From Escherichia coli (lineage in GTDB: Bacteria > Pseudomonadota > Gammaproteobacteria > Enterobacterales > Enterobacteriaceae): a DNA stretch of 64,000 nucleotides. Location: NCBI RefSeq assembly GCF_003334815.1, contig NZ_QOWO01000001.1; one strand, written 5' to 3'. The notes beneath the pieces are model-generated. The model saw only the letters and a program-made list of their open reading frames with translations, ran no database searches and was not told the DNA's origin. The translations under genes and the position numbers were made by a program. Positions 54,064 to 56,588 of this stretch are shown here, one piece after another (within the stretch, counting starts at the first letter, position 1; each line of letters begins with the position of its first letter).

Positions 54064-54070
54064 TTCGACA

Positions 54071-55696
54071 TCAACCCTGCCCTTCAGGGGTGGGGTTACC
54101 TTGCTTATCCTCTGTAAACTCCTTTCTGAGCATCACATAATCGAAAACATCATGGTTTGCATCCACAACCCGTGAGTCTCCTTTATAGTGTGCAATCACT
54201 TCCTCAAGCGTTTGCGGCTGTTCCGGCTTTGTTACCCCCATCCACGCATTAATAAGGTAATTATTGTAAGCTGTCGAAAAGATGTTGTTTTCCGTTGTGC
54301 GATCCACGCCATCCCCAAGAACGGGGCTATACCAGATAAACATCGGGACATGATATGCCTGCTGGCTAGCCTCCCTGCCTCCATGAAAATAGACGTTCTT
54401 CTTCGTAGGGTCACGTTCCAGGCCGTGGTCGGCAAAATACATGACCGAGGCGCGGCGATCTTTTAATAATTCAAAAACCTGACCTAGCAAACTATCTGTG
54501 TAATGAATGGAGTTGTCATAGCAGGCATCCTGATCGTCCTGCGGTTGAAACACGGCGCTGGATTGCGGATAGGCGCTACAAGCCGGTTCATGGCTTCCAT
54601 TTAAATGAAGAACAATCAGTTTCTTTTGCTGCGTATTTTGCTGTAATGCTTGCGATAAATGCGGCAACAACAATTCATCAAATCCTCTGACATAAACTGT
54701 TTCCATGGCGCGCATGGCGATACTGGTAACTGCTGTACCATTCTGCCGAAAAGCGGATTGCGAGCTTAGCCAGAAAGTCTGAAATCCTGCTTGATTAGCC
54801 ATATTAATAATGTTGTCGGGGTAATTATGAATGTCATGACTCAAAACAGAATCAGCAGTTAAAGAAAGGGGAACCGACAGCGCAGTGTAAGGTGCGCCGC
54901 TTATTGCTTGATTAAACAGTTTGATCTGTTTTCTTTGTGCTTCAACTTGCGGTGTCGTAGAGCGTGTATATCCATACAAAGACATATTGTCGACACGTAC
55001 AGACTCCCCCACAATCAACACGTAGGTATCAATACCTGTATCCCTGACTGATAATTGAAAATACGGCACCGTGTTTGCAATTGAGAGTAATCTTTGATGC
55101 TCTTTCGCTGCTAAAGCAAAATAGTTGAGATTGAAAAACGGCGTATAGGTAGCAAATCGCGACGCTAGTATATATGGACTGAACGCTTTTTTATTTTTTG
55201 CATCTTTATAAGCAAATTGACAAGCGGAAAATAAACTGCCCGAAATGACAATCAGCAATAATATTCCTGTCACTTTTTTTGTCGGCAAGGAAACATCATA
55301 TTTTATTATTACTGCCAAAAAAAGAAGGGATAAAAAAGCAAAGGCACATAGATAAGGGATATACATCCCCAGCATTTTGACAACTTCATCCGGATCACTC
55401 TGGAGCACACTAATCGCAAATCCATCATTGAAAGTTGTACCAAAGGTACACCATGAATAGAGGCTAATACTCATGTCTGCCGCAGTCAGTAACACAAATG
55501 GTGCGGCAACAAGCAGGCGAAGCGGAAGGGATGATATACGTTTTACAACCAGGATGGTCAGAACGAAGAACAGCAAGCGCTGAACCATATGCGCTCCGGA
55601 AGAAGCGACTAAGTTCGTAATACCAAAAACAATAACACAAAGATACAACAACCAATGAGATTTAAAAGTTCTAGCAAATTTGTTGAATACTGTCAT
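54071..55696 (-). CDS. yhbX: Predicted phosphoethanolamine transferase-like membrane sulfatase-family protein YhbX
   Basis: ORF 54071..55729; start at MTVFNKFARTF (541 aa); N-terminal transmembrane helices plus sulfatase-like domain; AT-rich. Confidence 0.8.
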   Translation of the reverse strand: MTVFNKFARTFKSHWLLYLCVIVFGITNLVASSGAHMVQRLLFFVLTILVVKRISSLPLRLLVAAPFVLLTAADMSISLYSWCTFGTTFNDGFAISVLQSDPDEVVKMLGMYIPYLCAFAFLSLLFLAVIIKYDVSLPTKKVTGILLLIVISGSLFSACQFAYKDAKNKKAFSPYILASRFATYTPFFNLNYFALAAKEHQRLLSIANTVPYFQLSVRDTGIDTYVLIVGESVRVDNMSLYGYTRSTTPQVEAQRKQIKLFNQAISGAPYTALSVPLSLTADSVLSHDIHNYPDNIINMANQAGFQTFWLSSQSAFRQNGTAVTSIAMRAMETVYVRGFDELLLPHLSQALQQNTQQKKLIVLHLNGSHEPACSAYPQSSAVFQPQDDQDACYDNSIHYTDSLLGQVFELLKDRRASVMYFADHGLERDPTKKNVYFHGGREASQQAYHVPMFIWYSPVLGDGVDRTTENNIFSTAYNNYLINAWMGVTKPEQPQTLEEVIAHYKGDSRVVDANHDVFDYVMLRKEFTEDKQGNPTPEGQG

Positions 55697-56112
55697 CCAG
55701 AAATCCAAGTTCACAACCAATATAAACAATTATCAACAATGTTTAATTTTATATCAGACATGTTTTTCAACTCTGATCCATATCAGAACGAAACACTGTT
55801 AGTTTTTTCTTTTTAAATGATGCGGCCATTGCGTTCTCAGTAATTAAATAACATTATCAATGCGTCTCTAAACATTACGCAGAACGTAGCCATCAGTCGT
55901 TATACTGACAGGAGCAGGATGGTTTATCGAGAAGTAAACATATCCGTATTCGTACCGGAACTGGAGTTGACACAATAAAGTGCCAATTATGTCAGTAGAA
56001 GGGAAAAATTTATAACTAAGGCGTACCGGCACCATCGTTTCAAGGTACCAGCTACGAGTAAAGCAACTGGACGAGATACAGATACCTGACAACCATTCCT
56101 CAGACCAGGACC

Positions 56113-56145
56113 AAAACGAAAAAAGACGCTTTTCAGCGTCTCTTT
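56113..56145 (-). terminator. Rho-independent terminator after leuU
   Basis: Minus-strand hairpin agacgctgaaaagcgtct followed by a T-run. Confidence 0.7.
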
Positions 56146-56154
56146 TCTGGAATT

Positions 56155-56241
56155 TGGTACCGAGGACGGGACTTGAACCCGTAAGCCCTATTGGGCACTA
56201 CCACCTCAAGGTAGCGTGTCTACCAATTCCACCACCTCGGC
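56155..56241 (-). tRNA. leuU: tRNA-Leu (GAG anticodon)
   Basis: Minus strand reads GCCGAGGTGGTGGAATTGGTAGACACGCTACCTTGAGGTGGTAGTGCCCAATAGGGCTTACGGGTTCAAGTCCCGTCCTCGGTACCA; long variable arm. Confidence 0.95.
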
Positions 56242-56255
56242 ACGGATACTACTTT

Positions 56256-56588
56256 TTAGTTCGGGATATCGCTGGTCGGCTTAGCCGGAGCAGCTGGCTG
56301 AGTTTGTTCGGTTTTCGCCGGTGCACTCAGATTTTCCCATTCGCTACCTTTATTGGTTTTGTTGCTATTGATGTTACCCAGCACCAGACTGATGATGAAG
56401 AATAACGTTGCCAGCAGCGCCGTCATGCGGGTCATGAAGTTACCAGAACCACTTGAACCAAACAGCGTAGCGGAAGCGCCTGCTCCGAAGGAGGCTCCCA
56501 TATCAGCGCCTTTACCTTGCTGCAGCATGATCAGACCAACAAGGCCAATTGCCACAATAAGGAAAACTACTAAAAGAGCTTCATACAT
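56256..56588 (-). CDS. secG: Protein translocase subunit SecG
   Basis: ORF 56256..56636; start at MYEALLVVFLIVAIGLVGLIMLQQGKGA (110 aa). Confidence 0.9.
   Translation of the reverse strand: MYEALLVVFLIVAIGLVGLIMLQQGKGADMGASFGAGASATLFGSSGSGNFMTRMTALLATLFFIISLVLGNINSNKTNKGSEWENLSAPAKTEQTQPAAPAKPTSDIPN

Follow-up and report, generated by a model that had tools for sequence, protein, structure and literature searches.

In Escherichia coli K-12, the gene yhbX is separated from the tRNA gene leuU by a long stretch of DNA, and the question raised by this locus is whether that stretch holds a gene, a small RNA, the control region of yhbX or functionless filler. The interval was studied within a window of 64,000 nucleotides of an E. 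coli genome (NCBI RefSeq assembly GCF_003334815.1, contig NZ_QOWO01000001.1), in which positions 54071–56241, from yhbX through leuU, are identical to E. coli K-12 MG1655 (NC_000913.3), so that a window coordinate equals the NC_000913.3 coordinate minus 3265917. The start codon of yhbX was placed at 55696 on the minus strand, backed by the N-terminus of a 69%-identical ortholog of the E. fergusonii type, which begins at the aligned Met and disfavours an upstream TTG. ARAGORN and Rfam both located leuU at 56155–56241, also on the minus strand. Because yhbX starts at 55696 and leuU occupies 56155–56241, the gap is exactly 55697–56154, or 458 bp (NC_000913.3 3321614–3322071). A preliminary description of the window had called it unusually long and free of any assigned feature, and both statements hold: the RefSeq annotation of NC_000913.3 is empty at 55697–56154, and 458 bp is the longest gap between any of the 55 features over the final 50 kb of the window, followed by gaps of 400, 350 and 347 bp. 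That description had also found no known element in it, in agreement with the finding that no database family matches the interval. The GC content of the gap is 38%, compared with 51% for the whole window, and drops to 33% around 55650–55949. The evidence indicates that the gap is probably a composite non-coding spacer, made up of the leuU terminator, a Rho-sensitive untranslated buffer and a probable yhbX promoter with a short leader, and that it contains neither a gene nor a small RNA. The features considered are the following.

54071–55696, minus strand: yhbX, a phosphoethanolamine-transferase-family gene downstream of the spacer, with which it forms one replaceable cassette (54064–56112).
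55697 to about 55815, minus strand: AT-rich region adjoining yhbX, with −10-like elements and a palindrome that recur at the same spacing upstream of E. fergusonii yhbX.
55729–55757, minus strand: alternative sigma-70-like promoter, −35 CTGATA, 17-nt spacer, −10 GATAAT (9/12 match).
55746–55756, minus strand: extended −10-like element TGaTATAAAAT, from which yhbX transcription is predicted to start near 55741, leaving a 5' UTR of about 45 nt.
55773–55786, minus strand: palindrome CTGATATGGATCAG, containing GATC, a candidate operator whose centre lies about 38 nt before the predicted transcription start.
55795, minus strand, and 55826, plus strand: "orphan" Rho termination regions from the bicyclomycin data of Adams et al. 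2021.
About 55816 to 56112, minus strand: distal untranslated spacer, present in E. coli only according to homology searches, and described by its C and G counts and its variation.
55868–56092, minus strand: 74-aa ORF with a TTG start, a chance ORF by its variation and by homology searches.
56016–56044, minus strand: weak sigma-32-like site from a consensus scan, −35 CTTGAAA (7/7), 14-nt spacer, −10 CGCCTTAG (4/7).
56113–56154, minus strand: 3' trailer of leuU and Rho-independent terminator of the secG-leuU operon, placed by consensus scan, folding, literature and conservation.

The leuU terminator, which the preliminary description had recognised at the right end of the gap, was recovered by a consensus scan as a 13-bp stem (56147–56118) followed by a T-tract, the U-tract of the RNA, to 56113. 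It folds with −19.5 kcal/mol (z = −4.8 against shuffles), and the hairpin scores as a terminator on the plus strand too (56124–56141). The sequence AAUU at 56154–56151, just past the CCA, is the RNase E/G cleavage site at which the leuU trailer is removed, and the secG-leuU 3' ends past the terminator amounted to 60% in the wild type and 93% in the rne-1 strain (Mohanty and Kushner 2008, PMC2241853). By Term-seq, the processed end of leuU lies at 3322072, which is position 56155 of the window (Adams et al. 2021). The terminator is present in all three E. coli alleles of the locus described below and stands directly after leuU in E. fergusonii, Salmonella, Citrobacter, Kosakonia, Enterobacter, Raoultella and others, with compensatory changes in its stem across the Enterobacteriaceae (GACGCTG/CAGCGTC, GACATCG/CGATGTC, GACGTCG/CGACGTC). 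Judged from these comparisons, it is ancestral in the family.

The 74-aa ORF exists as the preliminary description reported, and its poor coding character was borne out by a stop codon in one lineage, by mostly amino-acid-changing variants and by the lack of homologs beyond sporadic calls. Its Trp15 codon is a stop in O145:H28, and its variants, about 10 amino-acid-changing against about 5 silent, are close to the neutral expectation. Among 5.8 billion proteins, matches were limited to five clusters (25 sequences), all of them sporadic calls of this E. coli ORF itself or of its variants; one runs through leuU and another is a chimera. Neither RefSeq nor any of 10 assemblies carries a call of the ORF, the six frames of the gap gave no match to Pfam or NCBIfam, and the available part of the ribosome-profiling supplement of Stringer 2021 has no entry at the gap coordinates. 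A cat (chloramphenicol) cassette inserted between 56006 and 56007 has been used as a neutral marker linked to ftsH. The idea that this ORF, or a shorter one in the spacer, encodes a small protein can draw on the frame being open in 23 of 24 E. coli sequences, on the only 6-bp deletion being in frame and on the label "hypothetical protein" given to it by a few annotation pipelines; against this stand the TTG start, the codon-15 stop in O145:H28, the near-neutral ratio of variants, the origin of all five clusters in the same E. coli ORF, the absence of a family match and of calls in the 10 assemblies and RefSeq, the absence of the ORF from the available part of the Stringer 2021 supplement and the marker, used as neutral, that splits it. 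A small protein is accordingly so improbable that it can be practically disregarded, and the ORF is a chance ORF, not a gene. An ORF of 74 aa in AT-rich DNA is within chance expectation.

An unannotated small RNA, which had been offered as one possible content of the gap, did not survive inspection: the gap has no Rfam match, no second intrinsic terminator, no Term-seq 3' end and no unusual folding. With Rfam at permissive E-values, leuU alone rose above its gathering score, the other matches being sub-threshold and lying on the terminator. The consensus scan found no intrinsic terminator in the gap besides that of leuU, and no Term-seq 3' end was recorded between 3320017 and 3322072 in three growth conditions (Adams et al. 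2021). The folding of the 416 nt outside the leuU trailer and terminator is unremarkable (z = −1.5 on the minus strand and −0.8 on the plus strand), as is that of 55870–56013 (z = −1.6). A small RNA in the gap is not supported. Several other origins of the DNA were considered and rejected. A decayed gene or pseudogene was discarded when six-frame Pfam and NCBIfam searches came back empty, and a plasmid or phage origin when a distant DNA search gave only mislabelled E. coli chromosomes. A degraded copy of leuU was discarded on finding that the 15/20 direct repeat is at chance level (123/500 shuffles), and a tRNA-targeted integrative island on the absence of an integrase from the cassette and of a duplicated leuU 3' end (att site). 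No significant repeats were found in the gap and none flank the cassette; the gap is single copy per genome.

Over the distal spacer, published data give a signal of Rho-dependent termination. In Supplementary file 2 of Adams et al. 2021 (eLife), a minus-strand Rho region is given at 3321712 (window 55795) with a Rho score of 5.0 (p = 6e-73), bicyclomycin raising the downstream read count from 114 to 552, and a plus-strand region at 3321743 (window 55826) with a Rho score of 2.9 (p = 2e-5). Both scores were reproduced when recomputed from the published read counts; they come from a single dataset and are calculated over 800-nt windows, which makes the positions approximate, and the minus-strand upstream read count behind the score at 55795 is dominated by leuU reads. 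Because of the 800-nt windows and the leuU-dominated counts, these data do not distinguish termination of read-through from silencing, by Rho or H-NS, of the transcription that yhbX itself would initiate. They show that Rho limits transcription entering yhbX, and transcript start points are not given by them. The yhbX-sense strand has more C than G between about 56029 and 55880 (13–14 C against 7–10 G per 50 nt), a modest bias, and the non-homologous spacer of E. fergusonii has a strong C-rich tract at the equivalent place (23 C against 3 G in 50 nt). From this it is inferred that 56029–55880 would serve as a Rho loading site for RNAs that have run past the leuU terminator or arisen from spurious initiation, and that the distal spacer as a whole may act as a zone of Rho loading and termination which backs up the leuU terminator and halts antisense transcripts from yhbX. 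A high-affinity H-NS motif in the gap was also sought and rejected, the matches of the scan being at chance level.

The same Rho region enters into a different explanation, according to which the spacer is a long regulatory leader of yhbX, or the source of a leader-derived small RNA. The transcript would start about 315 nt upstream, at a sigma-32-type promoter at 56044–56016, and be attenuated by Rho at about 55800 unless signalled otherwise, and it would be comparable to the 5' UTR of the paralog eptB, where reporter fusions were used to test for Rho-dependent premature termination (Adams et al.). This explanation gains from the perfect CTTGAAA at 56044–56038, correctly spaced from a weak −10 (the consensus applied was CTTGAAA, a 13–15 nt spacer and CCCCATnT), from a weak RpoH peak in genomic SELEX that Shimada 2017 attributed to the yhbX-leuU spacer, from the Rho termination region some 215 nt downstream of the sigma-32-like site on the same strand, from the constraint on the distal spacer and from the eptB 5' UTR itself, which was studied as a lacZ fusion in the wild type and a rho mutant and has a Rho score of 2.3 at its 3' end (Adams et al.). 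However, the SELEX value of 3.2 is barely above the floor of 3.0 set by the weakest listed values, and its coordinate system is uncertain; the 4/7 match of the −10 is equalled at 3 of the 6 CTTGAAA sites in the window, and position 56044 is polymorphic. Furthermore, no Term-seq 3' end was found in the spacer in the three conditions or within 200 nt upstream of yhbX, the folding is unremarkable (z = −1.5), the distal region is missing from E. fergusonii and the cassette inserted at 56006/56007 was treated as neutral. The sigma-32 promoter at 56044–56016 was rejected on its 4/7 −10 and the weak SELEX peak, and the long leader is considered unlikely. A related possibility, that the distal 300 nt is a selected insulator or leader, with a dedicated Rho loading zone shielding yhbX and perhaps a sigma-32-type promoter upstream, is regarded as rather unlikely. 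If it were true, a horizontally acquired, envelope-modifying yhbX would be shielded from transcription running on out of the very highly expressed secG-leuU operon, and a stress-responsive promoter of the sigma-32 type would restrict yhbX expression to conditions that lift Rho termination in the leader. Both the threefold shortage of variable sites in the distal segment and the independent C-rich tract of E. fergusonii are compatible with an insulator or leader of this kind.

For the composite non-coding spacer, the remaining part is the proximal region of about 120 nt, which probably holds a predicted core promoter of yhbX, a candidate operator palindrome and a short 5' UTR. The −10-like elements and the palindrome lie 50–90 nt upstream of the yhbX start codon, with equal spacing in E. 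fergusonii. The form of the palindrome shared by K-12 and E. fergusonii, TGATAT(G/A)GATCAG (55785–55773), has 12 of 13 bases identical and lies at an equal distance from the ATG, and the element TATAAAAT (55753–55746) recurs without change in E. fergusonii, the palindrome lying 19 nt upstream of it in each species. In K-12, this element is preceded by TGa, giving an extended −10 (TGaTATAAA at 55756–55748), and TATAAAAT is invariant in 24 E. coli sequences. The alternative sigma-70-like site is partly kept in E. fergusonii as GTCGATA, which makes a third shared block, GTYGATA. In a shuffle test in which the alignment of the K-12 and E. fergusonii upstream regions was held to within 6 nt relative to the start codon, the observed score was attained by 3 of 1000 shuffles, and the match becomes marginal once this restriction is lifted. 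A promoter scan of 55400–56400 called one site (55757–55729) against a shuffle mean of 2.0, which is no more than chance, and the same scan applied to the region upstream of E. fergusonii yhbX called none. A C to T change at 55775, present in 5 of the 24 E. coli sequences (B2-like strains), disrupts the palindrome, which is also absent upstream of YhbX homologs at 43–46% identity. The suggestion made from the window that the gap may hold the promoter and regulator sites of yhbX is plausible rather than proven, given the −10-like elements, the palindrome and their spacing in E. fergusonii. The available Cappable-seq and Kim 2012 entries include no transcription start site for yhbX, which is possibly silent in those conditions.

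The variation of the gap among E. coli strains bears on the simplest alternative, that the spacer beyond the terminator and a minimal promoter is functionless, neutrally drifting filler, left over from the element that delivered yhbX or from a decayed upstream gene. In 24 E. coli sequences, 6.0% of the spacer sites are variable, compared with 20.2% of the fourfold sites of yhbX and 3.0% of its codon positions 1 and 2 (Fisher p = 7e-8), and the low variation of the spacer is not explained by base composition. The proximal and distal parts have 5.0% and 6.4% variable sites, respectively. The secG-glmM intergenic region has a diversity similar to that of the spacer. Such constraint is usual for E. 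coli intergenic DNA, as known from population genomics, and that of the spacer is judged typical of it, with nothing unusual indicated. Filler would fit with the lineage-specific nature of the spacer, which has no counterpart in E. fergusonii or other genera, with the tolerance of length-changing indels (1, 2 and 6 bp) and of the marker insertion, and with the replacement of the whole cassette in about 4.5% of E. coli genomes. It is opposed by the distal sites, 6.4% of which are variable against 20.2% of the fourfold sites in the same cassette (p = 2e-6), by the absence of any decayed-gene trace in six frames and by the absence of a repeat, a tRNA-end copy or mobile-element similarity, and it is held to be unlikely. 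The preliminary description had named neutral conservation, together with the absence of any transcription or translation signal, as the outcome that would speak against a function of the gap. Because the spacer varies less than synonymous sites and transcription-related signals are present in the form of the Rho regions, that outcome was not the one observed. Low variation together with transcription-related signals is what an ordinary E. coli intergenic region shows. As a separate observation, no identified element accounts for the approximately threefold shortage of variable sites across the distal 300 bp.

The distribution of the gap sets it in a wider context. It was found in 5168 of 5426 complete E. 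coli genomes as a single copy with 96.5–100% identity, and three E. coli records match at 80–90% identity. In 237 E. coli genomes, an unrelated cassette with a 317-aa helix-turn-helix gene replaces yhbX and the spacer, and nine others have a yhbX allele whose protein is 69% identical and whose upstream region measures 273 bp (231 bp without trailer and terminator). This allele is the E. fergusonii ortholog, which occupies the same position in that species. Between K-12 and E. fergusonii, the DNA identity of yhbX is 68.5%, compared with 93–98.5% for the flanking folP, glmM, secG and argG, and the distal spacers of the two do not align. Homology between the three E. coli alleles breaks off precisely at two points, 56113 and the stop codon of argG, and that of the E. 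coli alleles with other genera also ends at 56113. In Salmonella, Citrobacter, Kosakonia and Enterobacter, the argG-leuU spacing is 148–307 bp, and in Raoultella, Trabulsiella and Pluralibacter the gap is occupied by unrelated accessory genes. The spacer and YhbX were undetected among the 120 Enterobacterales leuU loci listed, and no other Escherichia species occurs among the matches listed. The nearest relatives of YhbX outside Escherichia are at most 48% identical. No confirmed YhbX locus was found in the species-representative genomes searched, a homologous-protein search with YhbX gave near-identical E. coli proteins only among the matches listed, and a contig look-up based on SecG gave E. 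coli only. Because alternative cassettes exist, the gaps elsewhere are short and yhbX is divergent, 54064–56112 is an exchangeable insertion into a convergent gap that was short in the ancestor, and yhbX with its spacer appears to be an Escherichia-specific accessory cassette between the convergent core units argG and secG-leuU. yhbX appears to be a foreign, poorly expressed and normally silent gene.

Taken along the minus strand, the composite spacer would work in three steps. In the first, 56154–56113 ends the heavily transcribed secG-leuU RNA, which is trimmed by RNase E/G, a step that has been experimentally shown (PMC2241853). In the second, Rho would halt transcripts that escape the terminator or run antisense to yhbX within the next 300 nt or so, which are untranslated and mildly richer in C than in G, and yhbX would thereby be insulated from its neighbours; of this step, the Rho-sensitive signal is documented in one genome-wide dataset and the insulating role is a proposal. 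In the third, the last 120 nt or so, very AT-rich, would carry the predicted core promoter of yhbX, the possible operator palindrome and the short 5' UTR. Partial conservation in E. fergusonii lends support to this promoter and operator step. The result fills a blank in the K-12 map and matters little beyond annotation: the 74-aa ORF should remain unannotated, the probable whereabouts of the promoter and possible operator of the uncharacterised yhbX are indicated, and two published "orphan" Rho regions receive a concrete context, lying as they do where a strong tRNA operon is separated from a foreign gene. On a larger scale, the locus illustrates in a small way a replaceable accessory cassette with sharp boundaries within a conserved core region, and may be of interest for research on yhbX or phosphoethanolamine transferases.

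Among known systems, 3'ETS-leuZ is a tRNA trailer functioning as a sponge for small RNAs. The leuU trailer shares with it the release by RNase E and a terminator hairpin with U-tail at the end, but the single-stranded part of the leuU trailer is only about 10 nt long. The right-hand 42 bp of the gap are the very secG-leuU terminator and trailer described earlier (PMC2241853), which covers 9% of the gap and leaves the other 416 bp outside the element. The distal spacer resembles cases of Rho-dependent termination in untranslated RNA, such as the 5' UTRs of eptB, mdtJ and sugE (Adams et al. 2021) and back-up termination, in that its RNA is untranslated over at least 300 nt, its read-through is bicyclomycin-sensitive on both strands and its sense strand has more C than G; in the case of eptB, the gene downstream of the gap also belongs to the same enzyme family. 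It differs from them in lacking a defined 3' end or a mapped rut site, the signal coming from 800-nt windows dominated by leuU. H-NS together with Rho silences AT-rich, horizontally acquired genes. The yhbX cassette is similar in being AT-rich (33–38% GC near the yhbX 5' end compared with 51% for the window), lineage-specific and replaceable, in the increase of its transcription when Rho is inhibited and in the lack of a yhbX start site among the available Cappable-seq and Kim 2012 entries. With respect to tRNA-adjacent hot spots of accessory genes (genomic islets), the yhbX cassette differs in having no integrase, duplicated tRNA 3' end or flanking direct repeat and in a boundary that lies past the terminator and not inside the tRNA. 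Nevertheless, the locus is like them in that unrelated genes occupy the argG-leuU position in Raoultella, Trabulsiella and Pluralibacter and that three alternative cassettes segregate there within E. coli.

The gap between argG and leuU was found to segregate as three alleles in E. coli (5426 genomes). The K-12-type yhbX cassette was the most frequent (5168/5426), followed by an alternative cassette with a 317-aa helix-turn-helix gene (237/5426), and the remaining type, a yhbX of the E. fergusonii type, occurred in nine of the 5426. The break points are the same for all three: on one side the stop codon of argG, on the other the point where the leuU terminator ends. The 317-aa protein presented only weak N-terminal matches in NCBIfam and PADLOC. 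Some other Enterobacteriaceae have unrelated accessory genes in the argG-leuU gap. From translated ORFs alone, those of Raoultella seem to encode a regulator-like, an outer-membrane-like and a lipoprotein-like protein, and the products in Trabulsiella resemble a LacI-type regulator, an enolase-superfamily enzyme and an MFS transporter.

Contents of the argG-leuU gap in the loci compared
Window 54064-56112: E. coli gap allele, yhbX cassette (yhbX on the minus strand)
Locus L002, 6832-8000: E. coli gap allele
Locus L003, 6131-8000: E. coli gap allele
Locus L105, 3317-5947: accessory genes, Raoultella
Locus L075, 1335-5522: accessory genes, Trabulsiella

The DNA identity of yhbX between E. coli and E. 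fergusonii was 68.5% (window 54071-55696 against 4001-5596 of the E. fergusonii locus, L147), whereas its neighbours folP, glmM, secG and argG were 93-98.5% identical between the same species. No intermediate yhbX alleles were found among the 120 best protein matches listed. A divergence far above that of the flanks, together with the lack of listed intermediates, suggests that this envelope enzyme may have been acquired separately, had its allele replaced or been evolving very fast. Frameshifted yhbX, annotated as a pseudogene, was recorded in two strains, 16003 (E. coli O145:H28) and 2014C-3599, and yhbX is dispensable in some lineages.

Frameshifted yhbX, from annotation
Locus L009, 1376-3000: frameshifted yhbX
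Locus L015, 1374-3000: frameshifted yhbX

Genome contigs, one genome per species, were also searched for YhbX with six exact 8-residue peptides of the K-12 protein, and the 74 pattern matches yielded no confirmed relatives, the E. coli representative included. This empty result contrasts with the presence of yhbX in 95% of complete E. coli genomes, and it could reflect either the allele of the representative strain or a limit of the search. In a distant search of complete E. coli genomes, the best match to the 416-bp spacer upstream of yhbX was only 80-90% identical in three records; these may represent divergent orthologs, which would help footprinting, or no more than short, partial matches. 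Within the spacer, the 74-aa ORF (window 55868..56092, minus strand) is matched by the database protein P0237 as far as YGYVYF, after which P0237 continues with unrelated sequence. This switch suggests that some sample carried an insertion, or an engineered junction, near window 55935; no contig encoding P0237 is on record.

At the other end of the cassette, only 7 bp separate the convergent stop codons of argG and yhbX (window 54064-54102 region), and the 3' end mapped for argG (3320017-3320019; window 54100-54102) falls within the 3' end of yhbX, which is encoded on the other strand. The argG-yhbX pair was named as an excludon candidate in a 2025 paper. At the leuU end, the leuU trailer (window 56113-56154) is freed by RNase E/G and terminates in a hairpin and U-tail, the same build as that of the 3'ETS-leuZ sponge RNA.
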